Of a stretch of DNA of 64,000 nucleotides, positions 156 through 58,676 are shown piece by piece (position 1 is the first letter of the stretch; each line of letters starts with the position of its first letter). The translations under genes and the position numbers were made by a program. The DNA is taken from the NCBI GenBank assembly GCA_003345595.1, contig PRDI01000075.1:11276-75275 (forward strand). Direction: 5' to 3'. The notes under the pieces are model-generated. The model ran no database searches and had not been told where the DNA came from. It worked only from the letters and a program-made list of their open reading frames with translations. The DNA is from Candidatus Thorarchaeota archaeon. Lineage in GTDB: Archaea; Asgardarchaeota; Thorarchaeia; Thorarchaeales; Thorarchaeaceae.

Positions 156-1250
156 ATGCTGCGGCTTGATAACATGTCCAAAATCTGTACGGCCGTGATT
201 ACGCTCATGGTAGTCTTATCCTGTTTAGAGAGTACCGCAAGCGCTCAGACCCCCCTTGACCCGGTCGTCATCCTGTACGATGCCTCCCACGGACCACAGT
301 TTGCGGCGGACGACGCAGACAAGGGCCTCAAACTCATGCTTGACCTGGTCAATGCGTCAACAAGATACATGGTCCGTGTCAACGAGGTTTCTCCCATCAA
401 TGACACCATATTGAAGGATGTAGACGTCCTAATTCTCGCGTCCCCCGATCGAACTTATGAGTTCACCAAATCGGAAGCATTGTCAATCGTAGAGATGCTG
501 AACAACGGTAGTTCATTGATGATACTCGGTGATCCTGCCATCAGCTCGAACTCCACGTATTGGTCGGGTGAGCCGGCTTTCCAAGACTTGGGGGACAATA
601 TTGCAGTCAATCGGCTCTTGGACCTACTAAACATCACCGGTGTTGGGTTCAGTATCAATGCGACTGGTGACGACAACTTCTGGCCGGACACAATGTTTGA
701 CTATGAACGCGCCTTGAACAACACATATCCCTGGGTGATACGGCTCGATCCTACGACATGGGAATCAAGCCATCCAATCTTCAAAGACATCAACGAACTG
801 ATTCTGATGACCGCCTCTCTAAAGCCAGTGTCCCTAGTCAGTTCGATCGCACATGGTGCGAAGACCTCATTTGCCCAGTTCAGAAAGGGTCCTAACACCT
901 TCGCCAACTATTCCTTTCCAAACATGAGCTTGGCCGAGTTTGAAGAACGCCCGCTCTCCTACTCGGCAATTAACGGCACACTCCCACCATGGCTCTCCGC
1001 CTTTGAGTACAACAACAGCAGGGTTGTGATATCAGGCTCCACAATCATGTTCACAGGACGTCTTCTTGATTTGCCCAAAGCCGAGGTCAAATGGTTCTAT
1101 GCAGCAGATAACTCCCGGCTTTTCATGAACATACTCGGCTGGCTCTCAGAAGACTTCGTCGAACCCGAGACCGCCGTTATGCCCATGCTGTTGATCTCAT
1201 CCGCGATTCTTGTAATCGGTGTTGTCTTCTATTTGGCTAAGAAGAGGTAA
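156..1250 (+). CDS. Type I membrane glycoprotein with GIFT (GldG/IFT52/Wbp1-OST48-like) domain
   Basis: N-terminal signal peptide; ILYDASHG, DVDVLILASP and NNSRVVISGS...DNSRLFMNILGWL motifs; C-terminal TM helix plus KKR tail; 11 N-X-S/T sequons in the mature part. Confidence 0.7.
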   Translation: MLRLDNMSKICTAVITLMVVLSCLESTASAQTPLDPVVILYDASHGPQFAADDADKGLKLMLDLVNASTRYMVRVNEVSPINDTILKDVDVLILASPDRTYEFTKSEALSIVEMLNNGSSLMILGDPAISSNSTYWSGEPAFQDLGDNIAVNRLLDLLNITGVGFSINATGDDNFWPDTMFDYERALNNTYPWVIRLDPTTWESSHPIFKDINELILMTASLKPVSLVSSIAHGAKTSFAQFRKGPNTFANYSFPNMSLAEFEERPLSYSAINGTLPPWLSAFEYNNSRVVISGSTIMFTGRLLDLPKAEVKWFYAADNSRLFMNILGWLSEDFVEPETAVMPMLLISSAILVIGVVFYLAKKR

Positions 1251-1264
1251 GCTGTGGAAAACGC

Positions 1265-1873
1265 TTACCAGGTGGGTATCTGCAGGCCCTCAGCCTGCAA
1301 GACTCTCTCTATCTCGTTCCTGAGCTCAACGATATTCGTCCCCTGCTTAGCCGAAAGTGGGACAATCACGGGAGCAAGTCCCTTCTGTGGAATCTTGTCA
1401 TGCAGATAGTCTATCTCTTCTGCTCTGTTACCACTTGGCAGCTTGTCAATCTTGTTAGCGACTACTATCACGTGTTGAGATATCTCAGAAAGGAAGGTAT
1501 AGAATTCCATATCGATTGGAATCTCTCCCTTGTTTTCCCATCTCTCGACGAGCTCTCGGAAGAGCGAGATGTCTATGACGAGGACCGCCAAGACTAGGCG
1601 ACCGCTCCAAGACTCAAGCTTTTGCACGAGTGCGGTCTTTGCCCGTTCAATGGCCTTCCTTCCCTGTCCAGCCATGTGGCCAAAGCCCGGTGTATCAACA
1701 AAGAGCACGGCTCCGAGATCAATACTCTTCTCCCATCGTGTGGTCCCTGGACGCTTGCCTACCTTGAGTCTTCGGCCTGTGAGTGCTCTCATCACGCTAC
1801 TCTTACCCACGTTGCTTCGTCCAGCGAAAACGACCATGGGTTTCTCATTCCCAGAATGGTCTTGTTCTGGCAT
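1265..1873 (-). CDS. engB: GTP-binding protein EngB/YihA
   Basis: GRSNVGKS, DTPGFG and NKID motifs; start uncertain (ATG at 1873 or 1837). Confidence 0.9.
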   Translation of the reverse strand: MPEQDHSGNEKPMVVFAGRSNVGKSSVMRALTGRRLKVGKRPGTTRWEKSIDLGAVLFVDTPGFGHMAGQGRKAIERAKTALVQKLESWSGRLVLAVLVIDISLFRELVERWENKGEIPIDMEFYTFLSEISQHVIVVANKIDKLPSGNRAEEIDYLHDKIPQKGLAPVIVPLSAKQGTNIVELRNEIERVLQAEGLQIPTW

Positions 1874-4685
1874 AGTTCCGCTCCGCCTCTGCAATCTGCC
1901 TGAGCAGACTGACTCTGTCTGTCATTCCCGGACGCAGTATACGAGATGCTGTCGTCGGTCCAATTCCACGTCCGGCCAGCGCTAGTAGGGCAATCCTGCC
2001 ATACGTTGCCACAAGTTCTGCTGTCAGGACGCCTGCAGCATAGAGCTTTCTCTTGTCCTTAGGTACCCTTCGGCCGGCTTTCACTGATTTCACTGTTCCT
2101 GAAAGCTCCGAGTCGTCCGGAGAAACTGCTGCAATCATTCTTGATCCACAGCTTGGACAGGACACTATCTCGTCCAAAGTGGATACTGTCCGAACCGAGT
2201 TCCAATCTCCATTGGCCATACACACGAGTCTGAACTGTTTTGCGAGAAGTCTGGCCTCCATAAGCCGAAGAATCTCGTTCTCATCAGTGATTTCACCTAG
2301 CACCTCGAAGCGGCTCTTTTCCTCAATTATCAGGCGTGCGAGTGGCGAGGGTTTGTCGGTTACTACAGTATAGACGTCCACAGTCCCAGATGAGATTCGG
2401 TCGAATAGGTCGACGACCATATTCTCGTCCAGTTTGTCGTGCAGCACCTCTCTCATCGCCTCTTCGTAGACAGGTCCGTCCTGAAAGACATCTATCAGGC
2501 GTCTGACCGGGATGTCCTTGACCCTTATGTCTCTTCTAATCACACCCATTCTACGGGCGACATGGATGAATCGGGACGCGAATGTCTGCGTGTGTTTCAC
2601 TGCTAGTCGAAGTATCGTCGAAACCTGATTGCCTGTATATCCCTTGAGCGTGTCAACAACACGATTCAAGTCAAGCCGTGCCGTCGAAGTCAGAAGAATT
2701 CGGTAGGGATCTCTCTCAACACCCACGTCTGCTCCGATGCTCGTTGTCAGTAGAGCTGCTACGACAATGCCGAGGGTTTCATTTGCCTTGGTGCCGAACG
2801 GGGTATGAATGACCAAACCCGATCCGAAGTCCTCAACCAAGACAGAGTCCGCAGACGGCAACCTGCCCAATGACTCATGGCTCTGCACCACGGTTCGAAT
2901 CATGTAGTCTTGTGTTGTTTCATCTATCCCGTAGTGAGTCTGTAGCCAATTCCGGGCTTCAGCATTCGGTTCTCTCAGTGTGGAGTTCCAGAGCTTGGCA
3001 ACCTCCGATGCAACCTCATATGGGACCGGGATCATCTCACCAATCCAATGTGGTGCCTCGGTGTCAACGCTGGTTGCTGGTGCACAGAGGACCTCTTCTT
3101 CATCCACACTTACAACAGTCCAAGACTTACCCCTTATGACAAGCAGCGAGCCGCCTTGCAGATTCTGTGTGACATAGTCTTCGTCCAATACACCTATGGA
3201 TGTCCTCGTAGTCATGTCTAGGGCGTTCAGTTGTCTAACATCTGGAATTGTGCTCAAGTGCTCGTAGTAGAAGACCCGTGTCTTCCTGCTAGCTGAGATT
3301 CTTGAGTTCTGTATGCGTACAATTCCTCTCTCGGCCATAAAGTCCAGCACTGAGCCGAGTTCCTCATCAGTCACCTCCACGAACGGGTATGCTCCGTGTA
3401 TCAATGCTGTGAGATCCTTGCGGTCTATCTGATGCGTGTCAATGACAACCCCAGCTATCTGATGACATAGAACGTCCCAAGCCTTCTTGTGTATGCTTGC
3501 GTCCTCGACCTTGTTCGACAGGGCACGTCTAAGTATCACCGCTGACTCAGTCACGTCGTCGAGATTAACGGTTGCCAGAAACACCCCCTCTGCGATCTTG
3601 TCGAGTCCATGGCCGGCGCGCCCAGTACGCTGCAAGGCGCGGGCCACTTCTCGAGGGGACGAATACTGGACGACTAGGTCTGCCTGTCCGATGTCTATGC
3701 CAAGTTCCAGACTTGACGTAGCGATGATTGCCCTTGAGAGTCCCTGTTTCAAACGAGTTTCAGCAGCCACTCGGGTGTCCTTTGAGAGTGACCCATGGTG
3801 GACATCAAACTCAAATGGAGGTTTGAGAGCGTGCATCTTGGCGCCAAGGACTTCCGCGAACGACCTAGTGTTAGTGAACACTATTGTCGAGGTATGTGAT
3901 TGCACTAGATCAACGATTCTTCGAAGCCTCGCTGTGGAGTTCACGGGATAGGAGATTCTCTTGGAAGTTTCAATATCCTCAGTAGTGGGTTGTGGCATTT
4001 CCACTCTCAAGTTCATCTTCCGTAGTCCATATCCCTCCCACAGGATTCTTGTTTCACCCTTCGGCCCGCTCAAAAGGGCCATAACAGCCCTAGGGTTCCC
4101 GACGGTTGCGGACAGCCCTATTCGTTGTACTCGCCCCCCTACGGCTTGGTCCAGCCGTTCAAGACCAAGACTGAGCTGTGTCCCTCTTTTGCTGTCGGCC
4201 AGTTCGTGTACCTCGTCGACAACCACGGCAAACACAGTCTTGAGATGGTATCTGAGCCTCGGCGCTGGCAGGATTGCCTGAAGCGACTCGGGCGTCGTTA
4301 TTAGCAGGTGAGGTGGTGTGATGGCCTGCTGTCTTCGCACATATTGTGTTGTATCACCGTGCCGGACAGCCACTGTGAAACCCAATTTGCCACAGAGGCC
4401 CTCCACTCTTCCAAACACGTCCCTGTTGAGTGCTCTTAGCGGCGTTATGTACAGGATGTAGACCCCAAACAGGTCTCGTTTCTGCTGTTTTTCTCCAAGG
4501 AGTTTCAGTAGTGGTAAGAGGGCCGCTTCAGTCTTGCCGCTGCCTGTGGGGGCGAGTAGAAGCATGTCGCTGCGTTCAGTCAGTATTGCTGGAATCGCCT
4601 TCTCTTGGATCGGTGTGGGCTTCTGGATACCACGAGCTGACAGGAATTCGGAAATCTCTGGACCTAGAGAATCAAAAGCACTCAT
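1845..4685 (-). CDS. lhr: Lhr-like SF2 DEAD/DEAH helicase
   Basis: APTGSGKT, PLRALNRD, TTPESL, DEVH, SAT, HHGSLS, LELGIDIG, QRTGRAGH; C-terminal Cys cluster. Confidence 0.93.
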   Translation of the reverse strand: MSAFDSLGPEISEFLSARGIQKPTPIQEKAIPAILTERSDMLLLAPTGSGKTEAALLPLLKLLGEKQQKRDLFGVYILYITPLRALNRDVFGRVEGLCGKLGFTVAVRHGDTTQYVRRQQAITPPHLLITTPESLQAILPAPRLRYHLKTVFAVVVDEVHELADSKRGTQLSLGLERLDQAVGGRVQRIGLSATVGNPRAVMALLSGPKGETRILWEGYGLRKMNLRVEMPQPTTEDIETSKRISYPVNSTARLRRIVDLVQSHTSTIVFTNTRSFAEVLGAKMHALKPPFEFDVHHGSLSKDTRVAAETRLKQGLSRAIIATSSLELGIDIGQADLVVQYSSPREVARALQRTGRAGHGLDKIAEGVFLATVNLDDVTESAVILRRALSNKVEDASIHKKAWDVLCHQIAGVVIDTHQIDRKDLTALIHGAYPFVEVTDEELGSVLDFMAERGIVRIQNSRISASRKTRVFYYEHLSTIPDVRQLNALDMTTRTSIGVLDEDYVTQNLQGGSLLVIRGKSWTVVSVDEEEVLCAPATSVDTEAPHWIGEMIPVPYEVASEVAKLWNSTLREPNAEARNWLQTHYGIDETTQDYMIRTVVQSHESLGRLPSADSVLVEDFGSGLVIHTPFGTKANETLGIVVAALLTTSIGADVGVERDPYRILLTSTARLDLNRVVDTLKGYTGNQVSTILRLAVKHTQTFASRFIHVARRMGVIRRDIRVKDIPVRRLIDVFQDGPVYEEAMREVLHDKLDENMVVDLFDRISSGTVDVYTVVTDKPSPLARLIIEEKSRFEVLGEITDENEILRLMEARLLAKQFRLVCMANGDWNSVRTVSTLDEIVSCPSCGSRMIAAVSPDDSELSGTVKSVKAGRRVPKDKRKLYAAGVLTAELVATYGRIALLALAGRGIGPTTASRILRPGMTDRVSLLRQIAEAERNYARTRPFWE

Positions 4686-4921
4686 CCAAACGACTTCCTT
4701 AGTCGGAGCGTGTGACGAATGGCACTCACTAGGATGCGGATGTCGGTTCTGAGTGTAGCATCAGCATCGCATGCCCTGTTCTCAAGCAGTTCTATGGCCT
4801 CGTTCGGAGAGGAGATCTGTTTCATTATCTCCTCGACCAGTGACTGCACTATGTCAAGATTGGACAGGTGCGGTGCAGATCTCTCGAATGCCTGTTGGAC
4901 TATTTCTTCAGTGTTCATCAT
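4682..4921 (-). CDS. Hypothetical small helical protein
   Basis: 79-aa ORF whose stop overlaps the lhr start (ATGA), suggesting translational coupling. Confidence 0.7.
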   Translation of the reverse strand: MMNTEEIVQQAFERSAPHLSNLDIVQSLVEEIMKQISSPNEAIELLENRACDADATLRTDIRILVSAIRHTLRLRKSFG

Positions 4922-4941
4922 GAGGTGGCTCTGGACGTGCC

Positions 4942-5046
4942 TTACTCTTCCTCTTCCTCACCGTATGCGACGTAGCCCAAGACAAGGAGAAGGGCCACGA
5001 TTCCCAAGACGTACAAGACAATATCGATGACTGGGATTATCTGCAT
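4942..5046 (-). CDS. 34-aa single-pass membrane micro-protein, candidate Ost4-like
   Basis: Hand-translated MQIIPVIDIVLYVLGIVALLLVLGYVAYGEEEEE*; ATG start; TTATAA box about 30 nt upstream; fills the gap between elf1 and the 79-aa ORF; below the ORF-track length cutoff. Confidence 0.7.
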   Translation of the reverse strand: MQIIPVIDIVLYVLGIVALLLVLGYVAYGEEEEE

Positions 5047-5113
5047 AGGTATCAGATGGCTCCGTCTGAGTGTCACTTATAATCATTGCTGACTGAAAAG
5101 ATTGATGCAGTGG

Positions 5114-5365
5114 CTATTCCTCTGTCTTTGCGCTCTCGTAGAATCGGTCAATGAAGCTGCCGTAGACATCTACAGGCTCGGTGAGCGAAGTGACATCGTC
5201 AATAGTCATCTCAAGTCCACAGGAGCCGCACTTAACAGTGGCGACTTTCTTTTCTCTAAGCAGTTCTATCTTGATTGCCGCATTACCACAGCTTGGGCAT
5301 TGATAAACGTCAGGAATCCGCTTTTGTGGTCGTCGTCGGATTTTCTGCCTTCTTCTTCTTCCCAT
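5114..5365 (-). CDS. elf1: Transcription elongation factor Elf1
   Basis: MGRRRR N-terminus, CPSC...CGSC zinc ribbon, EPVDVYGSFID; SD-like AGGTGAGG upstream. Confidence 0.93.
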   Translation of the reverse strand: MGRRRRQKIRRRPQKRIPDVYQCPSCGNAAIKIELLREKKVATVKCGSCGLEMTIDDVTSLTEPVDVYGSFIDRFYESAKTEE

Positions 5366-5520
5366 GATTCCTCACCTTTGCCTATTTCGCACAGACCGAG
5401 CTACAAGGCACGGAGAAACAGAGCGACTCCGGCCTCGGCTGGGATTCATTTAAGCGTTGCGTTAAGTCCCGATGAGTTTGGGGTTCGAAGGCTTCTTATT
5501 GCAGCTGCCGTGCGACATGA

Positions 5521-5757
5521 GTGATGTCCGCCTTGTCAAGAAATGCTCAGTGCGTATTGCAGATACTACAGGCCACAGGTACCCTGACGACATCCGAGAT
5601 ACTTGAGATGGCAAGGAGAACTGAGTACGCTGAGATCTGCAAAGACTGTGCAGGTGGTGACACTTTTGTCGCCGCTGCCAACCAGCTTGTCGAACAGGGG
5701 CTTGTCACGAAGAAACTGGGTAAAGGCGGATACCACTGGCAAATTGTGAGGCGATGA
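5521..5757 (+). CDS. Small winged-helix-like protein with CxxC
   Basis: Helix pattern with ICKDC, LVEQGLV...GYHWQI wing; directly upstream of the cysteine desulfurase. Confidence 0.6.
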   Translation: MMSALSRNAQCVLQILQATGTLTTSEILEMARRTEYAEICKDCAGGDTFVAAANQLVEQGLVTKKLGKGGYHWQIVRR

Positions 5758-5761
5758 GAGA

Positions 5762-7024: not shown

Positions 7025-7078
7025 GGACGCGAAACTTGGAACTGAGCTGGTCCGGAACCTCTTGTTCGTTGCCTGTAT

Positions 7079-9022: not shown

Positions 9023-12000
9023 GTGAGTGATTCCGAGCCTAGTCTGCCAAAACACAGTGTGAGCTATGGAGAGTACTTCTCGTCTATCAAGACAGACGTA
9101 GAACGTATCTACGAGGTCGCTGAACGCGCGAGAGCCAAAGGCTTCGATCCGGTGACTAAGGTCGAGATACCTCCGGCACATGATGTGGCAGCAAGGGTGG
9201 AGGCCACTCTTGATGGCCCCGTTGGAGTAGCCAAAAGAATCCGTGAACTCCAACAGACCTTCTCTAGGGAGGAAGTGGCTTTTGCAGTCGCTAGGGAGAT
9301 AGCGACTGGAGATCTTGGAGGGATCTCAGATCGTGAGAAGGCCGCAGACAAGGCAGTACGTGTCGCATTGGCAGTCATGACGGAGAGTATCACTGCAGCA
9401 CCCTTGGAAGGCATTGCCAAGGTTCGGATACGTGGTTCAGGAGAGGGCGAGTATCTGGCGCTCTATCTTGCTGGCCCGATTCGTGCTGCTGGAGGCACGG
9501 ACGCCGCTATGACCGTGCTTGTCACAGATCAGGTACGGCAAGTATTGCACATTCCAGCATTCAAGACAACTGATGACGAAGTGGAACGAGCAGTTGAGGA
9601 GGTCGAGCTGTACTCCCGTGCGTCACACTTGCAATACCCGGTGTACCCAGACCTGATCAGGTTTGCAGCAGCGAGACTACCCATAATGCTGACTGGTGAG
9701 CCGACTGAAGAGTATGAAGTCTCAGGTGGCCGCGACCTTGACCGTATCGAAACCAATAGGGTCAGGAGTGGTTTTGTTCTCGTCCTAAGTGACGGGGTTG
9801 TCGGCCGGTCTGCGAAGCTTGCAAAGATGGTGAGCAAGGTCAATGTTCCTGGGTGGGAGTGGCTTAGCGAGATTGCTGCCAAGACATCGAAGGCCAAGTC
9901 TCCAGAGGCAGATGAGTCTGCTCTCAAGAAGCTTGCACCGAAACCCGAATACTTGGCCGATGTGATAGGCGGAAGGCCTGTGTTCTCTCACCCATCTCGT
10001 ATTGGTGGTTTCAGGCTCAGGTACGGTCGGTCACGCAACACCGGCCTGGCGGGTGTCGGCATCAGTCCTGCCACGATGTTCCTAGTCGACGAGTTTCTAG
10101 CCCCCGGAACTCACATTCGTACAGAGCGACCGGGCAAGGGGGCAATTGTAGCTCCTGTAGACACTATCGAGGGACCGATAGTCCTGCTCAGAGATGGCTC
10201 AGTGAAACAGGTCAACACTGCTGAGGAAGCTCAAAGGCTCGAAGGAAAAGTGGAACGTATCATCTTTCTGGGCGATATCTTGGTGGCGCTGGGTGAGTTC
10301 CTGGAGAACAATCACCCACTGGTACCCTCCGGATACTGCGAAGAGTGGTGGTCACACGACCTTGACAAGGCTTGCTCTCGTCTGAGTGCAAAGCATGTTG
10401 ACAAGCATCTGTCCGACTCCGGAATCACACACGATGATCTCAAGGCCTTCATCGAGTCTCCACTCTCCAAGATTCCAACACCAACTCAAGCACTACGTCT
10501 TTCAGAGCATTTTCAAGTGCCATTACACCCAAGGTACTTGTACCGATGGGCGGTTCTCAATGCAGCAGAGGTTTCCGAACTGAGGACATGGCTTCTGTCC
10601 AAGTACAAGACAGAACAGACTCCTGAAGGCGAAACTCTTACAGTCCCAAGTGATCCGCACTACAAGGGCCTCCTAGAACGACTTGGCGTTCCTCACATTG
10701 TGAGCCGCGACAAGACGTACATCACTCTTACTGACAGTCCCGAAACTGTCCTTGTGCAGTTGGGCTCTAGAAGCAAGTCGCTCAGTGGTACAGATCCTCT
10801 TCAGATGCTTAACTCTGTCACAAGCGTGCCGCTCAGAGACAAAGCAGGTTTCTTCATAGGAGCAAGAATGGGTCGGCCCGAGAAGGCTGAGGAGCGGAAG
10901 ATGCACCCTCCAGTCCAAGTCCTCTTTCCTGTGGGTCGGACTACCGCAAGTGAGAGGAGATTGGAGAGAGTTGCCAAGACCACACAAGCCGTTTCCATTC
11001 TCTCATCTTTTGATGATCTGACAGACGGACAGTCAAGCTATGCTGAAACATATGGGCCAGACATTGAAATGGTATCACGCGTGTGCCCTGAATGCCAAAC
11101 CCTGACATTCGAGTCACGTTGCCCCAAGTGTCTGGTACACACCGAAGTGAGCCGATGGTGTTCTCAGGACGGTTGCGGTCGTCCAATAGATGCGAACACC
11201 GGGATGTGTCCTCTGAGCCACGACGTGAACATGGTCCGGGCCACAAGAAGGTATGTTGTTGACATTCAGATGCTTCTTGATCGCATAAAGACCGAGATCG
11301 GTGAATCACAGGCCTACAATCCACGAGGCGTGCTTGGATTGACGAATGAGTTCAAGATCCCTGAATACGCTGGGAAGGGTATGCTCCGCGCCAAGCACGA
11401 CGTATACTGCTATCGAGATGGTACTGCGCGGTTTGACTCGACAGACGCTCCCCTGACTCACTTCTTCCCTCGTGAAGTAGGCGTTTCAGTCGAACGTCTA
11501 CGTGACCTGGGCTATCGCACTGATTACAATGGCAGCCCTCTTGTTTCAGACGACCAAATCGTGGAACTCAAGGTGCAAGACCTAGTTGTATCGGAGAACT
11601 GTGCTGAGTATCTGTTCAGAGTAGGATGTTTTGTCGATGACTGCCTTGAGAGAGTATATGGACTGGAGCCGTTCTACAAGTTCGAAACGCAAGATGATGT
11701 CTTGGGGCAGCTCGTCATAGGGCTCGCGCCACACACGTCGGCAGGGATAATCGGTAGGATCATCGGTTTCACCGATGCGAGTGTCTGTTATGCGCATCCA
11801 TACTGGCATGCCGCCAAGAGAAGAAACTGTGATGGCGATGAAGATGCAGTGATGCTAGTCTTGGAAGCTCTTCTCAACTTCTCAAGAGCCTATCTTCCTG
11901 CAGGTAGAGGGGGTTTCATGGATGCGCCACTTGTCCTCTCGGTTATCCTTAACCCCTCTGAGGTAGACGCCGAAGCGCACAACATGGATGTGTGCAGACG

Positions 12001-20687: not shown

Positions 20688-21101
20688 TTGCCTGTATGGT
20701 GGCCGCGATTCATAATTAAGCCGCAAGTACGACTCACGAGGCCCCGTTTTGGAATGCCTGCACGTCCTCCCGACATAGTCCTCTTTGGAGGCCTGTTGCT
20801 GGTGGTCCTGTTTATTATGGGTGGCAACATTTACACGCTAGTCAAGACCCCACCCGCGATTGCTGCTGACTCATCAGGAAATCCAATCCTTATTGCGCCA
20901 GGTATTGATGTCCAGCTTGGACTGGAGGGGATTGTGGCCTCGGTCGTCATTTTCATAGGAACTGTTGGTGTTGGTCTCGTCTATCTGTCCTCAAAGTATG
21001 TTTTCCAGCCCGGCTACGCAACACGTCTGATGGTTCTTGGTGCAATACTTGCAGGGGGCGCATTCTTAGTCATAAGCTACCTCTATGGTCTTAAGACGTA
21101 G
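20688..21101 (+). CDS. DC2/OSTC-like (OST3/OST6 family) oligosaccharyltransferase subunit
   Basis: Three TM helices; FIMGGNIY..V..PP...QLGLEGIVAS motif; TTG start with GAGGT SD and TTTTTAAA box. Confidence 0.8.
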   Translation: MPVWWPRFIIKPQVRLTRPRFGMPARPPDIVLFGGLLLVVLFIMGGNIYTLVKTPPAIAADSSGNPILIAPGIDVQLGLEGIVASVVIFIGTVGVGLVYLSSKYVFQPGYATRLMVLGAILAGGAFLVISYLYGLKT

Positions 21102-25053: not shown

Positions 25054-27846
25054 ATGCCGAGCCTGAGTCACTTCAAAAGATCCGCTAGCAGGTTCCTTCA
25101 TCAAGTCTTTCACAAACCAAAAGCAAAGATATCTCGAGGATCGGTCCTTCTCATCGTTGCTCTTTGTATCATAGTCGTTTCTGCTATAGCGGTTCGTCTA
25201 GAGCCACTGCTCGACTCACAACCGATTGTCCATGAGTTTGACTCGTGGTATCAGCTTAGAGTGACTCAGTATATTGCTGCAAATGGATATGCATCATTCT
25301 TCAGCTGGTACGACCACATGAGTTGGGTGCCCTTCGGTCGCGACATAGCGGTCTCAACCTACATTGGTGTGCCGTTCACAGCCGCCACATTCTACTTTCT
25401 TCTTAATGGAATAGGTATCAGCGTGGATTTGGTGGTTGTCTGCATCATGATGGCTGGGTTCATGGGCGGCTTCGCGACACTGGCCACATTCTTTCTGGGG
25501 AAGGAGTTGTCGAACAAGTCAGTCGGACTCCTGAGCGCTCTCTTCGTGGCACTCATGCCTGCGTATATTCAGAGGACAACAGCCGGCTTTTTTGACAACG
25601 AGTCTATAGGCGTCTTTGCCATTGTGATTACCCTCCTCTTCTTCATGCGCTCTCTGAAGAGGGGTTCTCTGCCCTCTGCAGTGGCCGCAGGCCTATCTCT
25701 AGGCTATCTACAACTGTCTTGGGGAGCAGCAGACTTTCTTACGGACCTGTTTGCTCTCTATGCGTTCTTCATGTTAGTCACAGGTCGATACAGTAGTCGT
25801 CTTCTCTCAAGCTACTTGATCACGTTGAGCTTGGGTCTCTTCATTGCAAATCTGCTGCCTCGTAACAGTTTCCTGAACTCGGGGGCACTCACTTCTCTCA
25901 CATTCCTTGCTCCGGTAGGGGTGGGTGTCTTGCTTGCAGGCTATGAGGTCTGGTTGCGGGTTTCAAAGTACCGTGAGGCCACAGCAGGTGCACTGGCTCC
26001 TCATATGAAGCCAATCTTGCTAGGGATAATCGCTCCAGTCCTTGGTGTGACGGCCTATTCCGTATTTGCAGCTGGTCAAAACCTGCAGATTTCAACACTC
26101 ACTTCTAACCCCATAACTTTCGTCGGTGGTAAGTTTCTCGCTGTCATTAACCCCTTCTATCGACTTGACCAGCGTATCTTCGCATCGGTAGCCGAGCATC
26201 TCCCTGCTCCCTGGGCGAGTTTCTATCAGACGCTGATTGTGCTGATATTCTTCTTCCCGGTTGGAATGTACTTCCTGTTCAAGAGGGGCCGCGATGAAGA
26301 CTGGTTGGTAGTCCTCTTTGGAGTCACTGCAGTGTACTTCACGGGTAGTATGATCCGTCTTGGCCTGATCCTAGCACCCGCAGTTGCACTACTTGCTGCT
26401 GTCGCCGTGAACGGTGTCTTGACGCCATTCGCAAGGGTTGTTTCTCAGAAGTCCGTTTTCGAACGTCGCAGGTTTCGAATCAGCTCGTCCCTTACTTCAG
26501 AACACACGATTGCTGTCTTTACGCTCATAGGACTGCTGCTTTCGGTCAATGTCTATCTTGGAGTTCAGTACGCTGTCCAAGTAGGTGCTCCTGAGTTCGC
26601 GCCCTCAAAGCTCAGTGACACGAGCCAGTTTCTCGACTGGCAGACTGCAATGACATACGTCCGTAATGTCGTTCCCAAATCGGCAACAATAGCCAGCTGG
26701 TGGGACTATGGATACTGGATAACGTGTGCTGGCGCGGGACGGTCGATTGTAGACAATGCCACCTTCAATGCCACCCAGATAGCTCTTATGGGCTATGCCC
26801 TGATGGCTCTCAATCTCACTGAGTCACTGAAGACCTTCAAGCTGTGGAATGCATCACATGTACTGGTATACTGGGGACACGAGCTCTCGTTCTTTGGTGG
26901 GGACGAAGGAAAGTGGCCCTGGATGGTCCGCATAGCTGAAGACTATCTCGGGTCGTCAGTCATAGATGACCGTACGTACCTCGGGGACAATCTTGCGACC
27001 ACGAATACAATCGAGACTGACTACACCCTCGATCCTTTCTACTCCTCGACCCTGTATAGACTGATGTCATACGGTGAACCACTCACCTCAACCGAAGCCG
27101 ATGAGTGGGGTCTGCCGAGTGGAAGGAAATCGGTTGACTTCTATCAACCTCAAGGATACAGTTCTCCAATCAGTTATACGGGCGACACGAGATGGACCTC
27201 TCATATGCCTATCGACCTACACGGGGCGTTCAAGGGCCCCTACTATAGCTCAGACTATGGCACAGTCAAAATCTACGAGATCGACTACACCATGTATGAG
27301 CAGTATCTCAATAGGACTGCCGCTCAGTGGGCCCCCAAGGAGGGCACATTGACTGGTGTCAAAGCCGACGGCGTTCTCTCTGCCAGTGAGAAGGCCTTCC
27401 AGAGCTTCGATGGAGTTCTTGGAGGCGGCTTTGATGCCAAAGTCTACGTACAGGCCAACTCCACACAACTGTACTTTGGTCTTGAGATGGATGATTACCA
27501 AGTCGGCAATGACGCCTTCGGCATACAGATTGCGCCGCTGGGCCCGGTCACGGCATCAGACATCCGCATAGTGAACTATGCAGGCCATCAGTTCTATGAC
27601 GGTCATATTGACTACAACGGTGATTGGGCCTTCGACTCAAGTGGGGCCAATGCAACGTTGTTTGGAACAGGAGAGAACGTCACCGAGCTGATATTTCCGC
27701 TCAACTCTCTCGATCCTCAGGACCTGAACCTGAAACCGGGAATGAACTATCAGATACGGCTGCTGTTCTGGGACAATGTTGACTCAGGAGAACCGACACT
27801 CGCGACCGATTGGCGAACCATCTGGGTGCCTGTGAGCTTGTACTGA
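25054..27846 (+). CDS. aglB: Oligosaccharyltransferase catalytic subunit STT3/AglB with C-terminal DOMON/CBM9-like extension
   Basis: IVHEFDSW, DNE, SVAEH, WWDYG, DNATFN, GDEGKWPWMVRI; many TM helices. Confidence 0.95.
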   Translation: MPSLSHFKRSASRFLHQVFHKPKAKISRGSVLLIVALCIIVVSAIAVRLEPLLDSQPIVHEFDSWYQLRVTQYIAANGYASFFSWYDHMSWVPFGRDIAVSTYIGVPFTAATFYFLLNGIGISVDLVVVCIMMAGFMGGFATLATFFLGKELSNKSVGLLSALFVALMPAYIQRTTAGFFDNESIGVFAIVITLLFFMRSLKRGSLPSAVAAGLSLGYLQLSWGAADFLTDLFALYAFFMLVTGRYSSRLLSSYLITLSLGLFIANLLPRNSFLNSGALTSLTFLAPVGVGVLLAGYEVWLRVSKYREATAGALAPHMKPILLGIIAPVLGVTAYSVFAAGQNLQISTLTSNPITFVGGKFLAVINPFYRLDQRIFASVAEHLPAPWASFYQTLIVLIFFFPVGMYFLFKRGRDEDWLVVLFGVTAVYFTGSMIRLGLILAPAVALLAAVAVNGVLTPFARVVSQKSVFERRRFRISSSLTSEHTIAVFTLIGLLLSVNVYLGVQYAVQVGAPEFAPSKLSDTSQFLDWQTAMTYVRNVVPKSATIASWWDYGYWITCAGAGRSIVDNATFNATQIALMGYALMALNLTESLKTFKLWNASHVLVYWGHELSFFGGDEGKWPWMVRIAEDYLGSSVIDDRTYLGDNLATTNTIETDYTLDPFYSSTLYRLMSYGEPLTSTEADEWGLPSGRKSVDFYQPQGYSSPISYTGDTRWTSHMPIDLHGAFKGPYYSSDYGTVKIYEIDYTMYEQYLNRTAAQWAPKEGTLTGVKADGVLSASEKAFQSFDGVLGGGFDAKVYVQANSTQLYFGLEMDDYQVGNDAFGIQIAPLGPVTASDIRIVNYAGHQFYDGHIDYNGDWAFDSSGANATLFGTGENVTELIFPLNSLDPQDLNLKPGMNYQIRLLFWDNVDSGEPTLATDWRTIWVPVSLY

Positions 27847-29705: not shown

Positions 29706-29885
29706 CTACAGAATATGAGCTATAATGGTGGCGACTACAAGTATGGATGCGAATACCACGACCACCGTCGGGCCTATCTTCACACCTGGAGTCTCGTCTT
29801 CAAAGAACCTGATCAGCCCTGCACCACCTGAGGGCATCGGTCCTTCACCCTTCTTGCTCTTGCGCTTCTTGGCGGTCTTCGGCAT
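29706..29885 (-). CDS. secG: Protein translocase subunit Sec61beta (59 aa)
   Basis: Hand-translated MPKTAKKRKSKKGEGPMPSGGAGLIRFFEDETPGVKIGPTVVVVFASILVVATIIAHIL*; GAGG SD; below the ORF-track cutoff. Confidence 0.93.
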   Translation of the reverse strand: MPKTAKKRKSKKGEGPMPSGGAGLIRFFEDETPGVKIGPTVVVVFASILVVATIIAHIL

Positions 29886-48945: not shown

Positions 48946-48956
48946 ATGAAACTCGG

Positions 48957-51434: not shown

Positions 51435-51495
51435 GTGGCACTGCTGTCATTTCTGCATAACCTTAATAACTGCTTCAAGAAGTCCGGTCGTCTGC

Positions 51496-51573
51496 GCCCC
51501 GGTGGTGTAGTCCGGCCCAGCATTGGGGACTTTCGCTCCCCCGACCCGGGTTCGAATCCCGGCCGGGGCACCA
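51496..51573 (+). tRNA. tRNA-Glu(TTC)
   Basis: GCCCCGG/CCGGGGC acceptor, GGGGA-CTTTCGC-TCCCC, GTTCGAATC, CCA; TTAATAA box upstream. Confidence 0.95.
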
Positions 51574-51605
51574 ATGTCTTCTGGGAAACGACGTGGTGCT
51601 CTGTT

Positions 51606-52463: not shown

Positions 52464-52479
52464 TCATAGTCCTCCTTCA

Positions 52480-53109: not shown

Positions 53110-53167
53110 GTGGCATCAACTCGTTGTGTCGGTGGTAGCATGGTATGCCGTTATCCTTTTCGCATCT

Positions 53168-54484
53168 TCATCTGGTAGCTCTGACGGGTACTCTTCCCGC
53201 TGTCCCTTGGCCCACCATGAATTTTCCGTAGCTATACACGAGTTCGCCACCCACGAAGGTCATGACAGGGCGTGCGAGCACCCGTCTTCCCTCAAATGGG
53301 GTGACTCTTGCCTTTGACTGGAAGTCTGCGCCACGAATAACAGTCTCCTCTCTCTGGACTACCGTAATGTCTGCATCATAGCCCTTTGTCAGCACTCCCT
53401 TGTTACCGATCCGTAGTACCCATGCAGGAGCCGAACAACAGCATCTCAAGTAGTCCACCCACGGCAACCGGCCATCAAAGACCTCTGTCAACATAAGCGG
53501 CACAAGTGTTTCCAGCCCAGGTATGCCCGAGGCCGCCTTCAGAAACGGTACGAGCTTCTCTTGGTCGGTGTGGGGTGCATGATCGGACACTACACAGTCA
53601 ATAGAACATTGACCGGAGAGAGCATGTCTAAGCCACTCACTGTCCTGTCGTGTACGAAGTGGGGGAAGCACTTTTGCAGTGCCATCTGAATCTATGAAGT
53701 CGCTACCCGCCAGAAGCAGATGGTGTGGCGTGACTTCTGCTGTCAAGCTCTTCTCTGCCCTGTGCTCTCCTATCAGTCGGGCCGCACTCTCGCAGCTGAC
53801 GTGACACACGTGCAGACGTCCCCCAATCTCAGAATGAGCGCTCAGAAACAGCTTTATCGACTTGGCCTCATTATCACAGCTATGAAGGGCGAGAAAGTCA
53901 TTCAGGTCTTCTGGTACAGCACCCGGCTTTGAAGAGTCAGGATGGAACAACAGTGGCAAATCCAGTTCGAAGCAGATTCTCATACAGTCAAGGGCCCGCT
54001 GCGGGCCAGTTCGCGTCCCCTGTACCAGTGGGGAATGAGGGTACTCTTTTACGCCGAGTATGTTGGGGGTAATGGACGCATCGAAGTCCGCGGCCTTCTT
54101 TGGCACACCCGCATAGAAGCCGACATTGACAAAGCGTTTCTCTTGTGCACTAGTGATTTTCTCCTCAAGCACTCTCGATGTGAGGACAGGTGGATCCGAG
54201 TTTGGCATGTCGACAACAGTCGTCACGCCGCCTGCAGCGGCGGCTCTAGTCCCAGTCATATAGTCCTCCTTGTTTGATTGCCCCAAGTCACGTAGATGCA
54301 CATGGATGTCGATTGCCCCGGGAAGGACATATAGACCGCTACAATCGACTGTTTCCTGAGCGGCGGGCTCATTGCCAACTACATAGACCGCCTCGATTTT
54401 GCCTGCCTTGACACCAAGCGAACGTGCCGTTTCCTTTCCATCAACTATCACAGTACCGTTCTTCAGGAGGAGGTCTACAGACAT
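53168..54484 (-). CDS. pyrC: Dihydroorotase-family cyclic amidohydrolase
   Basis: PGAIDIHVHLRD, AAAGGVTT, DMPN, HVCHVS, EVTPHHL, PPLR, SDHAPH. Confidence 0.85.
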   Translation of the reverse strand: MSVDLLLKNGTVIVDGKETARSLGVKAGKIEAVYVVGNEPAAQETVDCSGLYVLPGAIDIHVHLRDLGQSNKEDYMTGTRAAAAGGVTTVVDMPNSDPPVLTSRVLEEKITSAQEKRFVNVGFYAGVPKKAADFDASITPNILGVKEYPHSPLVQGTRTGPQRALDCMRICFELDLPLLFHPDSSKPGAVPEDLNDFLALHSCDNEAKSIKLFLSAHSEIGGRLHVCHVSCESAARLIGEHRAEKSLTAEVTPHHLLLAGSDFIDSDGTAKVLPPLRTRQDSEWLRHALSGQCSIDCVVSDHAPHTDQEKLVPFLKAASGIPGLETLVPLMLTEVFDGRLPWVDYLRCCCSAPAWVLRIGNKGVLTKGYDADITVVQREETVIRGADFQSKARVTPFEGRRVLARPVMTFVGGELVYSYGKFMVGQGTAGRVPVRATR

Positions 54485-54526
54485 CTGCGGTGGACGCCAC
54501 CCCTGTACAGTACAGAATGGACCCTG

Positions 54527-55351
54527 TTAAGTCTGCTTCGGCGGCACTGGCACCTTGAACTTGTTCGCCACAAAGCGCGTGAAGTCTGTTGCACCGACTA
54601 TGCCGACGAGCTTGTTGCCCTTAGTGACGACTGGGAGCGTGTTCAGGTAAGCATCGAGCATCCTAGTGGCCGCTTTGGATATTGGCTCCTCAGGGTCTGC
54701 CACTGGGGGTTGCTGCATCATAGCATCTACCACTCGAATCATTCTCACTTGGTTAGCACGGTACTTGTCTGGCACTTCCACGCTAAATCTGGCTAGAGCC
54801 TGTGCCACAGTCTTCTCAGTGAGGAGACCAAGGACACGGTCCTTTTCTGTGACAGGCATCCCAGAATAGCCAGCTGTAAGCATGTCCGAACGAGCTCTTA
54901 TGAGTCGTTCCACAGGTCCGACAGTCAGAAGCCCCTGCTTTGTCATGAGCTCCTTGACCTTCACATTCTCAATCTTCTTGACAAGTGCAGAGATTTCAGC
55001 CTTCGTTATCACGCCGACCAGCTTGCCTTCCTTGTCAATGACTGGACATCCACTCATGCCCCTATCTACCATCAGTTGCGCTACATCCGTGATATCGTCT
55101 GTAGGCGATGCAGTGATCACAGTTTCAGTCATTGCGCTTGACACATGAAGCCTTCCAATAGAAACAGCTACGACCTTGCTTACTCCGAGTCGGTCGGCAA
55201 TGTCCGCATACGTGAGAATCCCCCTCAGTTCATTGCCTTCAGTCACAATCAACCTGTCAACACGTTTCTTCTCAAGGAGATCGAGGGCATAGGACAGTCT
55301 CTGGTCTTTTGCAATAGTCACTGGTTCAGTCATTATCTGAGATACTTCCAC
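54527..55351 (-). CDS. CBS-domain protein (4 CBS)
   Basis: Tandem CBS repeats; LHVSSAMT motif. Confidence 0.9.
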   Translation of the reverse strand: MEVSQIMTEPVTIAKDQRLSYALDLLEKKRVDRLIVTEGNELRGILTYADIADRLGVSKVVAVSIGRLHVSSAMTETVITASPTDDITDVAQLMVDRGMSGCPVIDKEGKLVGVITKAEISALVKKIENVKVKELMTKQGLLTVGPVERLIRARSDMLTAGYSGMPVTEKDRVLGLLTEKTVAQALARFSVEVPDKYRANQVRMIRVVDAMMQQPPVADPEEPISKAATRMLDAYLNTLPVVTKGNKLVGIVGATDFTRFVANKFKVPVPPKQT

Positions 55352-55410
55352 TACATGGGCCTCCTACATCATACTTGGGTGCGCACATCACGTGGCACTG
55401 TTCAACCAAT

Positions 55411-55983
55411 TCAGCTACGACACGCTTCGCAGAGGTACCGACCATCTTCCATGACCAAGTCCGTCGAGTACTCGCCACAGTTGTCGCATATGCCTCCATA
55501 AGCCACCACTTCGTCCTCCTCCTCCTCTTCATCAAACGGTCTTTGCATCCCATCTGCTTTCATTCTGAGCGATTCAACTAGGATGTCAATCAGCTCTGGC
55601 GACCATCGGAGGATGTCTCTCGAAGTCACAATGCCTACGAGGGAGTCATTCTTGAGCACAGCGACTCGACGAATCCCGCTTCTGGCCATCACCCGCATGG
55701 CCTCGGTCAGAGAAGTGTCCATTGTAACGTGAATCAGTGGCGAGCTCATGATTTGATTCGCCTTGGTCGTCTGGGGGTCCAGCTCCCTTGCTATCACCCT
55801 GCGCACAAGATCTTCTTCAGTAATGATACCTACTGGTCGTTCCCTGCTCACCACAATGATTGAGCTGATATCTGCCTTGGTCATTGACTTGGCAACATCA
55901 AGGGCCGTCGCGTCGGGTGGCATCGTGACTACTTGAGAAGTCATGATGTCCCTCACGGACATATCGTGCGCCGATCCAGCCAT
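55411..55983 (-). CDS. CBS-pair protein with C-terminal zinc ribbon
   Basis: Two CBS domains, acidic linker, GICDNCG...LCEAC. Confidence 0.9.
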   Translation of the reverse strand: MAGSAHDMSVRDIMTSQVVTMPPDATALDVAKSMTKADISSIIVVSRERPVGIITEEDLVRRVIARELDPQTTKANQIMSSPLIHVTMDTSLTEAMRVMARSGIRRVAVLKNDSLVGIVTSRDILRWSPELIDILVESLRMKADGMQRPFDEEEEEDEVVAYGGICDNCGEYSTDLVMEDGRYLCEACRS

Positions 55984-56141
55984 AGAAGCGACCTCAGTTC
56001 ATTAGGAAGTCGGTCCGACACTCCGGGTCAGAGAGCTTCTCTGACCTACCCTCCGGGCCAACTTATTAAATCTGTCTGTGCAAATGACCTGCAGCAAGGC
56101 TGATCCATCAACACTGCTCAGCACTTGCAGTCTTGCTTGTT

Positions 56142-58157
56142 TCATGATAGTAGGTCGCCATTTCCTGGAGGAAGCATGCGCATCAAGTCTTCTTCAGGCA
56201 TGCGTGAAATGAGGCGTGCTCGGTCATCTTCCAGCATTCGTCCAATGTGGCCCAAAATCTCCTTGACAAGCTGTCCCTTGCTCGTTCTTCCTGGGACTAC
56301 TCTGACATGATATGGAGTAGAAACAGACACGGCAGAAGTCGGTCCCGAAACAGGCAGCACGTAGTCCTCCTCAAACACCACTCCCACCGCAATCTCAACA
56401 GGAACGCCCCTGATGTAGTTCTTCGTTCCGTAGAGCATGACTGCTCCTTGGGGCAAATACTCCCCTGTGGGTGGAGTGAAGCTCACCTGTTCAGGGTTAA
56501 CCCAGTACGCATCACCAGTAGACAAACCGTCCTGCCAAGCACTTGAGAACGACACTGCAAACTGGGCTGCTTCCAACAGAGTCTGCTGTCCTGGCGGTTG
56601 ATCTGGGACTTTGATAACGACATATGGGGCTCCGTGCAGTGCGGCATGAAGGAAGACATCGTTTGCAGCCATTTGCCTCTTTGCCAGAAGTTCGTTGCTC
56701 TTAGCGTCGCGGCCCCCAAGCACGAGGAAGCCCTCTGATGAGAAGAACCAACGAAATCTCTCGTACCATTTCTGTTTTCTGGCCCTGAGTGGGCCTCTCG
56801 TTTCTGGAGCCTTCTCCACAGTTTTCTGCATCTCTACAAGCTGGACCTGTGTCTTCTCAATCTGGCTCTCAGCTCCCTCTGCTTTCGCTTCTGCTCTCTT
56901 TGCCTGTTCATAGGCGGCTGCAGCATTGTCCTGAGCACTCAGTCGTACATCGAGTGTCACGCTCGTGCCACTCAGGTCCATGACAATCTGAGCCTCCGAA
57001 GGCATTATTCTCTTGATTATGGCCGCTGACTTGAGGCTCTTCTTCTTTCCCTTCTCGATTCTCTGGACTATCTCCTCCCAAGAGAGCCCGCCAGCCCGCG
57101 CCTTTGTGATTGTTTCGAGCACTTCTTGGACTGTTTGGAGATGAGCGTAGATGAGTTCGCCAGATACTCTCAATTCCTCCGCCTTTGTCCTGAGAGTCGA
57201 AACGCTCTCCTGTTGCTTATCAATGATTGTCTGTAGTCGGTTTCTCTCCTTCGCCAGAGCACCATCAGTCTCCTCCTCTGGCTTCTCTGATTCCGTGACA
57301 CCGAAGAAGTTGTCAATAGCTTGGCTGAACGTATCGAACCCTTTTACTGGGTGCCCCCGGTAGAACTGGAATTCGAAAGGGAGGAATGCTATGGGGCTTT
57401 GTTCAGTCTGTCCTTCATCGGGTTCCTCCAAAACCACGCGGGGCTCTCTCACACCTGCTTTGAGTCTGTCGGCATACTGTTGAAGCCCTGCTCTGAGATC
57501 CGCAAGCGTTTTCTCATCGAGGTCAGAGGCCATCGCTTTCGAGGATACACCTGCCAAGGTGCAGATCTCTTCGCAGCTGAGAGCATCCAAGTTGAGCCTG
57601 CTGGCGAGCGTGCGGACCACGTTTGCCTTTGAATCAGACATGACGTCTTGGAGGGAGTAGTTGTCTAAGGCGAGTACATCAACCCCTCGCGGTGGTGGGA
57701 GATCGTATTTCGCCTTTGGTACAAGATCACGGTCTCGCATTCTCTTGTAGTGCTGTGCCACAAAGATCCTGTCATCGGAGTCTAGCAGTATCAGATTGCC
57801 GTCACCAAAGAGTTCGGCCACGAGCTTGTGTGTCCCGGAATCATCTCCCACTTCCAGTACCACAATCCTGTCGAGGTCATGCTGTTTCAGACTGATGACT
57901 CTCTTGTCACGTAAGTACTTCCGAAGGACGGTCACGAACTTCGAAGGGGTCTTCGGGGCCACTCTCTGAAACTCCGTGAGATGAATCCGGCGGCCTGGTT
58001 CAATGAGTAGTTGACTGTTTCCAACAATCGGCTGGTAGAGCTTCAATATGAATACCTGACCATGGCTGTAGATGTTTTTGATGAAGGCTCCTTCTGACGC
58101 TTTCCGCGCTTCTGGAAGGACTAACATGATGTCTGTGTTGCTCATCGCGTCTTTCAT
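56142..58157 (-). CDS. rqcH: Ribosome quality control factor Rqc2/NEMF (NFACT)
   Basis: LRKYL, DRI, ELFGDGN, WYERFRWF, GGRDAKSNE, HA..HGAP, PEQVS. Confidence 0.94.
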   Translation of the reverse strand: MKDAMSNTDIMLVLPEARKASEGAFIKNIYSHGQVFILKLYQPIVGNSQLLIEPGRRIHLTEFQRVAPKTPSKFVTVLRKYLRDKRVISLKQHDLDRIVVLEVGDDSGTHKLVAELFGDGNLILLDSDDRIFVAQHYKRMRDRDLVPKAKYDLPPPRGVDVLALDNYSLQDVMSDSKANVVRTLASRLNLDALSCEEICTLAGVSSKAMASDLDEKTLADLRAGLQQYADRLKAGVREPRVVLEEPDEGQTEQSPIAFLPFEFQFYRGHPVKGFDTFSQAIDNFFGVTESEKPEEETDGALAKERNRLQTIIDKQQESVSTLRTKAEELRVSGELIYAHLQTVQEVLETITKARAGGLSWEEIVQRIEKGKKKSLKSAAIIKRIMPSEAQIVMDLSGTSVTLDVRLSAQDNAAAAYEQAKRAEAKAEGAESQIEKTQVQLVEMQKTVEKAPETRGPLRARKQKWYERFRWFFSSEGFLVLGGRDAKSNELLAKRQMAANDVFLHAALHGAPYVVIKVPDQPPGQQTLLEAAQFAVSFSSAWQDGLSTGDAYWVNPEQVSFTPPTGEYLPQGAVMLYGTKNYIRGVPVEIAVGVVFEEDYVLPVSGPTSAVSVSTPYHVRVVPGRTSKGQLVKEILGHIGRMLEDDRARLISRMPEEDLMRMLPPGNGDLLS

Positions 58158-58328
58158 GAAGCATCCACCTGCACGCTAAATCTTTCAGTCATACTCCAGT
58201 TCTCGCAACTCGTTTCTGACATCCAACCGAAAATAACTGAGGTCATCTGTGTACAGTATTGTCAGTTCTGAACGATACGATTATAACTTGGTCGATTGCT
58301 CTGGCATTTGCCCGGCGGTTGGTCAGAC

Positions 58329-58676
58329 ATGAGTTTTCTCAAGGCTCCTCTCAAGAACATCTTCCAGCGCATGTTTGGTCGATGGGACAAGAGCCCACAG
58401 GACCAAATCTTCTATGTCAAGGCTTTCTTTGCCATCGTAAGCGCTCTGGTCTGTACGGCCGGGGGACAGGCGTTTGCTGGCGTGAGAGGTCTGATGTTTG
58501 GCCTTCTGGTGTATGTCTTGACGCTTTTCGTCATCGTCTACTTGATGGATGTGGACCCAGACTCGATTGGAGGCAGGACGAAGTTGATCACCAATGCTCT
58601 TCCGTCATACCTATTGCTATGGGTAGTCCTGTGGACTCTATTCTATGCATTTGTAGTGCCAGTCAGTCTTCTTTAG
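58329..58676 (+). CDS. EMC6/Rab5ip-like three-TM membrane protein
   Basis: Three TM helices; GLMFGLLVY and C-terminal SYLLLWVVLWTLFY resemble the EMC6 FVLFWTFLY motif. Confidence 0.7.
   Translation: MSFLKAPLKNIFQRMFGRWDKSPQDQIFYVKAFFAIVSALVCTAGGQAFAGVRGLMFGLLVYVLTLFVIVYLMDVDPDSIGGRTKLITNALPSYLLLWVVLWTLFYAFVVPVSLL

Follow-up and report, generated by a model that had tools for sequence, protein, structure and literature searches.

The window analysed here, a stretch of 64,000 nt from contig PRDI01000075.1 of a Candidatus Thorarchaeota archaeon (forward strand, positions 11,276 to 75,275; G000:C75:11276-75275 in our numbering), encodes a eukaryote-type STT3, the catalytic subunit of the oligosaccharyltransferase (OST), together with a homologue of the small OST subunit DC2/OSTC. 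Among the hallmarks of the eukaryotic endoplasmic reticulum is the N-glycosylation of proteins by an OST that has several subunits and is coupled to the translocon; an origin of this system in Asgard archaea is accepted in outline. An earlier note on this DNA had listed six open reading frames (ORFs) as parts of such a machine, and all six are present at the positions claimed. As a whole, the data are best explained, with a probability of about 0.7, by an STT3-DC2 core, accompanied by a lineage-restricted microprotein as a candidate subunit, a GIFT-domain paralogue of the WBP1-like proteins, and genes of the general translocon and insertase pathways. Five of the six genes bear out their proposed labels loosely; for STT3, DC2, Sec61beta and the EMC6/OPTI-like protein the labels hold strongly.

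The source is a metagenome-assembled genome of 2.73 Mb in 129 contigs, 83% complete, hereafter the Thor genome. The nearest relatives of its proteins bear the name Candidatus Thorarchaeota. Comparisons were made across a sample of 201 Asgard genomes, comprising 43 of the same family (the Thor family), 1 of its sister family and 157 others.

STT3 and the DC2/OSTC homologue

The STT3/AglB gene (25054..27846, forward strand) encodes a protein of 930 aa and is the only STT3 gene of the genome. The Pfam STT3 profile aligned over its whole length with residues 32-448 (E = 5.9e-54), corresponding to the N-terminal domain with multiple transmembrane (TM) helices. Among PDB sequences the closest were human and canine STT3A (1.4e-86), followed by STT3B (6.8e-77) and yeast Stt3 (3.1e-76), whereas Pyrococcus AglB matched at only about 1e-5 and in the C-terminal core alone. 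The translation contains HEFD and FFDNES (both with the acidic residues of external loop 1, EL1), SVAEH (EL5), WWDYG, DNATFNAT and DEGKWPWM (the DK motif DxxKxxxM), which we take, from what is known of the yeast and human enzymes, to be the corresponding STT3 motifs. Judged by its sequence, the enzyme is eukaryote-type, having less in common with the archaeal AglB enzymes so far characterised than with eukaryotic STT3, and the claim that it carries eukaryote-type motifs was borne out, with STT3A as its best solved relative.

Unlike the human OST-A and yeast Stt3-Ost4-Ost3/6 enzymes (PDB 6EZN, 6C26), this STT3 has an additional C-terminal domain (residues ~745-930, window positions 27280-27846, forward strand). 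No Pfam match was found in residues 690-930; in the Atlas model the domain resembles beta-sandwiches of the CBM9/EB_dh (DOMON-like) type, with TM scores of 0.60-0.65, and it is common to a cluster of Thorarchaeota STT3 proteins.

The second member of the proposed core (20688..21101, forward strand) is 137 aa long, has three TM helices and lacks a thioredoxin domain; its gene starts at TTG, with the element TTTTTAAAA about 40 nt upstream of the start codon. Pfam OST3_OST6 matched it above the cut-off (E = 7.2e-9, 35.9 bits) through the TM part only (profile positions 185-288 of 294). As a single-sequence query the protein had no match in PDB, and a profile of 23 Asgard DC2-like members was needed to place it. 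This profile matched human OSTC (6s7o_H) at E = 1.8e-19 and 73 bits, positions 9-140 of 143 aligning with residues 10-144 of 149 of the chain, from end to end and including the basic segment that precedes the first TM helix. MagT1 reached only 0.0011 (21.9 bits), and yeast Ost3/6 was absent from the matches at E<=1. From these comparisons the three-helix protein is a full-length DC2/OSTC homologue, as had been claimed. In human OST-A, DC2/OSTC is a three-helix subunit that binds STT3A and contacts Sec61.

The DC2-like gene was found in 184 of the 201 Asgard genomes; the listed ORFs are mostly of ~140-200 aa and cover only profile positions ~165-290. On the evidence of the family profile, the protein that has hitherto gone by the name Ost3/6 in Asgard archaea is of the DC2/OSTC type throughout the phylum. 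In the literature searched it is called Ost3 or Ost6, with no mention of DC2/OSTC in Asgard archaea.

In addition to the DC2-like gene, and separate from it, many Asgard genomes contain ORFs of ~130-170 aa whose match to Pfam OST3_OST6 is confined to the N-terminal thioredoxin part of the profile. They cover profile positions ~5-140 or 46-105, in some cases up to ~180 (for example G038:C1:1160823-1161083, G143:C14:16545-16709 and G115:C135:41603-42097); none was found in the Thor genome, at its 83% completeness. Eukaryotic Ost3/6 may be a fusion of a gene for the thioredoxin part with a DC2-like gene.

An alternative is that STT3 acts alone in the manner of characterised AglB, that the DC2-like protein has another membrane role, and that the remaining genes are unrelated. 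Most archaeal AglB enzymes act as single subunits, Mg2+ transport has been proposed for MagT1/TUSC3, which are relatives of the DC2-like protein, and none of the candidate genes shares an operon with STT3; Pfam OST3_OST6 gives weak matches in non-Asgard control genomes as well. A solitary enzyme is nevertheless improbable in view of the near-universal occurrence of the DC2-like family in Asgard archaea, of its alignment with OSTC through the segment before the first helix, and of the specifically eukaryote-like character of STT3. OSTC is not known to have a role outside OST-A.

The 34-aa microprotein

The full hypothesis of the earlier note assigns STT3, the DC2-like protein, an Ost4-like microprotein and a Wbp1/OST48-like protein to a single OST of near-eukaryotic make-up, which would be docked on SecYE-beta. 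This fuller assembly appears rather improbable from the evidence on its last two members.

The microprotein gene (5046 to 4945, reverse strand) starts at ATG and encodes 34 aa with a single TM helix and the acidic C-terminal tail EEEEE. A TATA-like box, TTATAA, lies about 30 nt upstream of the ATG (5077..5082, reverse strand); a TTATAAG box at the same distance is present at this locus and at three other Thorarchaeota loci. The sequence is conserved as a protein at the three related loci compared (L002-L004), the relatives being 38 aa long, with the core G-I/F-V/L-A-L-L-L-x-L-G/V-Y-x-V-Y-G followed by the acidic tail. A profile built on it found one copy in each of the 43 Thor-family genomes and in the single genome of the sister family, and no credible match in the rest of the sampled phylum. 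The microprotein is a real gene, restricted to its order.

Its size and its presence throughout the order are what favour the Ost4 role. Against it, Pfam Ost4 (PF10215) did not match the microprotein at E<=1, nor anything in the genome at E<=10; the microprotein profile retrieved no OST4 chain from PDB at E<=10, only generic TM matches; and a search of the ESM Atlas gave a best score of 0.83 and no Ost4 cluster. Across the 201 genomes Pfam Ost4 found nothing for the Thor lineage and, elsewhere, sporadic sub-threshold matches that look like noise. A 38-aa Ost4 candidate at another locus (L080) was rejected, as it overlaps a zinc-ribbon ORF. Ost4 has its N-terminus outside and ends in a basic cytosolic tail, whereas the microprotein lacks any basic residue and ends in five glutamates. 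Its likeness to Ost4, in sequence terms, is limited to size (34 versus ~36 aa) and the single TM helix. Of the original label the conserved gene stands, and no further similarity to Ost4 was detected; the microprotein is a candidate, unproven, for the Ost4 position.

Directly upstream of the microprotein gene lies a homologue of the transcription elongation factor Elf1 (5114-5365, reverse strand; Pfam 5.1e-19). On its other side the gene for a 79-aa protein with no Pfam match (4682-4921, reverse strand) shares 4 nt, an ATGA junction, with the beginning of the gene for the Lhr helicase.

The GIFT-domain protein

The ORF at 156..1250 (forward strand) encodes a predicted type I membrane glycoprotein of 364 aa, with a signal peptide, a GIFT-fold ectodomain, a C-terminal TM helix and a KKR tail. 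Its best Pfam family is ABC_transp_aux (8.6e-11), with a weak match to IFT52_GIFT. Pfam OST48_N did not match it at E<=1, and at E<=0.001 the genome as a whole was without a match; across the 43 Thor-family genomes this model gave three weak matches, all in other, larger ORFs.

An AlphaFold2 model made with a 67-sequence alignment reached a predicted local distance difference test (pLDDT) score of 84, compared with 58 for a shallow alignment. It places helices at residues 4-23 and 341-363, and the GIFT domain at residues 35-335 of 364. The VIA Z scores of the modelled ectodomain were 23.4 and 22.7 against the GIFT domain of IFT52 (PDB 5FMR, 5FMS; root mean square deviation (rmsd) 2.5 A over ~215 residues), 21.6-20.7 against residues 45-308 of human OST48 (rmsd 2.7 A over 231-233 residues) and 19.5 against yeast Wbp1, as compared with 13-15 for ThuA-like proteins and ~12 for generic amidotransferases. 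The predicted fold resembles OST48 and IFT52 about equally. With OST48/Wbp1 the protein shares this class I glutamine-amidotransferase-like fold, type I topology and a short basic tail; with IFT52 it shares the fold but, unlike IFT52, it is predicted to be exported and is rich in sequons.

The family is single-copy in 43/43 Thor-family genomes, and homologues occur in 152 of the 201 Asgard genomes. Above its cut-off, Pfam OST48_N selects other Asgard proteins, of 430-461 aa, whose relatives are named Heimdallarchaeota or Njordarchaeales. In a quick maximum-likelihood analysis with IQ-TREE these WBP1-like proteins (W clade, 14 rows) were split at an SH-aLRT of 99 from a P clade of 53 rows that includes the Thor proteins; eukaryotic OST48 was not included in the tree. 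Since three Asgard families (f4, f22 and f23) are represented in each of the two clades, P and W are paralogues. The two are homologous, hhalign aligning the Thor group with the W clade at 99.3% and with other P proteins at 100%. Human OST48 was matched by the W clade at 4.2e-13 and by the non-Thor P group at 0.0019 in PDB profile searches, and by the profile of the Thor group not at all at E<=10. Exhaustive phmmer searching with a Heimdall WBP1-like protein gave 38 proteins; of the ten whose names were checked, all were archaeal or without a name. These comparisons place the Thor GIFT protein in an Asgard-wide P clade that is paralogous to the WBP1-like proteins of Heimdall and Njord archaea. 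In the literature searched, there is no description of such a second GIFT clade.

The resemblance to OST48 in fold and topology, the homology to the W clade and the fact that some P-clade members score best on Pfam OST48_N (25-30 bits) would suit a Wbp1 role in the fuller OST described above, as would the short distance between the GIFT and DC2-like genes in one other Asgard family. What speaks against that role is the failure of the Thor profile to reach OST48 where the WBP1-like clade reaches it, the coexistence of both clades in the same families, and the absence from the 364-aa protein of the luminal stretch that OST48 has C-terminal to its GIFT-like domain. The "Wbp1/OST48-like" label can be kept for the topology and the modelled fold, that is, for an OST48-like architecture; it is not matched by OST48_N or by the clade, and status as an OST subunit is not established.

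Chances are about even that the GIFT protein is a glycoprotein of the surface or envelope, or a transporter accessory of the GldG kind, and is related to the OST only as its substrate. It contains 12 sequons, as against 3.5 +/- 1.6 in shuffled sequences, of which 8 are conserved in 19/19 homologues; its best Pfam family is the transporter-associated one already named, and its neighbours encode a GTPase, an Lhr helicase and a metallophosphatase. The P clade occurs in only 7/40 genomes of a large Asgard family in which DC2 is found in 38/40 and Ribophorin I in 29/40. On the other side, no ABC transporter genes lie near the GIFT gene at the L002-L004 loci, its topology is that of OST48 and not of GldG, which has TM helices at both ends, and single-copy, vertical inheritance in every Thor-family genome is what is seen for a core housekeeping protein.

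Both Asgard GIFT clades match the GIFT domain of the cytosolic IFT52 (PDB 5FMR/5FMS; alignments A2 and A3) better than OST48: 2.7e-13 versus 0.0019 for P, and 1.5e-17 versus 4.2e-13 for W. These better scores may merely reflect slow evolution of IFT52. The preference also makes the origin of the GIFT domain of IFT52 a question of interest.

Two further arrangements of GIFT genes were seen outside the Thor family. In Asgard family f5 a distance of 2-7 kb separates the GIFT gene of the P clade from the DC2-like gene (L069 G142:C80 and L070 G097:C5; also G151:C1, G196:C52, G157:C9 and G074:C1). This proximity was rejected as an OST cluster, because in the two loci examined a NAD synthase and a Rad51-like ATPase, genes unrelated to glycosylation, stand between them; the corresponding distance in Thorarchaeia is ~20 kb, and the intervening genes differ from those of f5. 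In at least four genomes of the Heimdall-type family f22 (G130:C12:341506-347997, G184:C148:20198-26750, G139:C3:132301-139378 and G107:C31:29671-36105) the WBP1-like and Ribophorin I genes share a contig, at a distance of ~5 kb.

Subunit inventory and the published picture

In the Thor genome as a whole, Pfam found no Ribophorin I (Ost1), OST48_N, DAD1 (Ost2), KCP2 or TRAP-gamma; Swp1 (ribophorin II) was not searched. TRAP-beta matches were present, but control genomes match too. Ribophorin I gave weak matches in 3 of the 43 Thor-family genomes, in large unrelated ORFs, against 99 of the 157 other Asgard genomes. An Ost5-like ORF of 65 aa with two TM helices lies elsewhere in the genome (G000:C82, L005:1471-1668, forward strand), its match to Pfam Ost5/TMEM258 being sub-threshold (22.6 bits, E = 3.1e-4). 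With these subunits not found, "near-eukaryotic" overstates the inventory, although the STT3-DC2 core within that description is plausible; the missing Ost1, Ost2 and KCP2 likewise count against the fuller assembly.

The general idea of an Asgard OST is already published (Eme et al. 2023, Nature 618:992; PMC10307638), and the statement that STT3- and OST3/6-like genes were known in Asgard archaea agrees with that work, where, as in Zaremba-Niedzwiedzka et al. 2017, STT3 and "Ost3/6" are reported in all Asgard lineages. Ost4 and Ost5 are reported there in most Asgard classes; WBP1, Ost2 and Swp1 are limited in that account to Heimdallarchaeia, with Njordarchaeales counted among them (Eme et al. 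2023). On the points covered, the present searches agree with this toolkit, OST48_N scoring above its cut-off with proteins from Heimdall- and Njord-related archaea.

Among the nearest known systems is subcomplex II of human OST-A, composed of STT3A, OST4, DC2 and KCP2 (PDB 6S7O, 8B6L). By sequence the Thor STT3 is nearest to STT3A, and the three-helix protein aligns along the full length of OSTC. The microprotein corresponds in size and in its single helix to the Ost4 subunit of the human and yeast complexes and differs in its acidic tail and in the absence of an Ost4 sequence signal; no counterpart of KCP2 was found in the Thor genome by Pfam.

Sec61beta and the EMC6/OPTI-like protein

The two remaining genes belong to translocation and membrane insertion. 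Sec61beta (archaeal SecG/Sec-beta; 29706..29885, reverse strand) is a tail-anchored protein of 59 aa with a C-terminal TM helix. Its identification was confirmed by Pfam Sec61_beta at 9.4e-14 and 51.6 bits (cut-off 27); NCBIfam PRK01253 gave 52.3 bits (cut-off 55).

The small membrane protein of 115 aa at 58329..58676 (forward strand) belongs to the EMC6/OPTI (C20orf24) family. Pfam EMC6 (Rab5ip) scored it at 21.4 bits, just below the cut-off of 23.3, and matched 13 of the 16 members of its family. Against PDB, the family profile (A5) matched OPTI (7tut_9) at 8.2e-11 over residues 33-126 of 129, and EMC6 at 0.008-0.011. Using one query, the protein was found in 43/43 Thor-family genomes and in 92/201 Asgard genomes. 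One such gene was found in the Thor genome, which contains three EMC3_TMCO1 (DUF106, archaeal YidC-like) paralogues (C64:1220-1681, C20:23163-23630 and C57:1517-1939; L147-L149).

Lewis & Hegde 2021 (PMC8675477) found one EMC6-like protein in each of nine archaeal proteomes queried, placed the Loki homologue nearer to C20orf24 than to EMC6, and predicted the archaeal protein to be a partner of YidC/Ylp1 (DUF106), a pairing predicted for M. jannaschii. The Thor family agrees with the Loki pattern, matching human OPTI/C20orf24 (PDB 7TUT) better than EMC6, and adds a further member. Assignment to the EMC6/OPTI family stands, and the proposed place in the OST does not, the protein belonging to the insertase pathway. 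Like Sec61beta, it occurs universally in archaea as a part of translocation and insertion; neither of the two is an OST subunit or specific to Asgard archaea.

A full-length NFACT/RqcH-type ribosome quality-control protein (56142-58157, reverse strand; NFACT_N 2.3e-55, NFACT-R_1 2.6e-30) adjoins the EMC6/OPTI-like gene.

Gene order in the window

The GC content of the window is even throughout, at 51-54%. The candidate genes are scattered among housekeeping genes, in accordance with the earlier observation that they do not form an operon. Neighbours checked include a topoisomerase, MptE-like and pterin-binding enzymes, glycine cleavage T and H proteins, eIF2-alpha, MazG, SHMT, NFACT/RqcH, an AsnC regulator, KaiC, a GTPase, Lhr and Elf1.

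The order GIFT protein, GTPase, Lhr helicase, small gene, Elf1, aminotransferase, RPA and PolD is common to the window and to three loci of other Thorarchaeota/Sifarchaeia assemblies (L002-L004). Same-contig spacings of ~3.7 kb and ~20 kb among the GIFT gene, the micro-ORF and the DC2-like gene are kept in other Thor-family genomes (for example G093:C8 and G137:C442). Co-location of the candidates is an inherited, family-wide gene order. The window would be an ordinary, syntenically conserved piece of the Thorarchaeota chromosome, from which the six genes are probably transcribed separately.

Proposed arrangement of the Thorarchaeota OST

In the arrangement that we favour, STT3 would transfer a lipid-linked glycan to the asparagine of N-X-S/T sequons. 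STT3 and the DC2/OSTC homologue most likely work together, probably as a small OST core like eukaryotic subcomplex II. We infer a physical complex of the two, its docking on the translocon and its co-translational action; by analogy with human OST-A, DC2 may hold the STT3 core near SecYE-beta, so that nascent chains would be glycosylated while emerging. The Ost5-like protein encoded elsewhere in the genome may join this core, with the microprotein as the candidate for the Ost4 position. The GIFT protein, predicted to be heavily N-glycosylated and located at the surface, may be an accessory of the OST or merely its substrate. Sec61beta would serve the general translocon, and the EMC6/OPTI-like protein a YidC-type insertase.

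Several points weigh against this arrangement. The interaction of STT3 with DC2 is a prediction, and we know of the role of DC2 at Sec61 from mammals only. In a genome that is 83% complete, absences are weak taken singly, those of Ost1 and OST48_N being made firmer by the family-wide Pfam searches, and Pfam models built on eukaryotic sequences can miss divergent small subunits. Eukaryotic OST48 sequences, finally, are not placed in the GIFT tree.

Implications

A broader scenario would be that the Asgard "Ost3/6" is DC2/OSTC paired phylum-wide with an STT3A-like enzyme, that the docked OST-A form is ancestral, that Ost3/6 arose later by fusion of a gene for the thioredoxin part plus first TM helix with a DC2-like gene, and that the Thor complex is completed by the microprotein and a P-clade GIFT subunit. 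In its entirety this scenario is doubtful. The window adds detail to the published picture of the Asgard OST and leaves that picture unchanged. Thorarchaeia carry a second GIFT clade, akin to the WBP1 homologues yet separate from them, and a hidden microprotein gene that is universal in their order. That the probable and widespread partner of STT3 in Asgard archaea is of the DC2/OSTC type rather than the Ost3/6 type bears on whether co-translational glycosylation came first.

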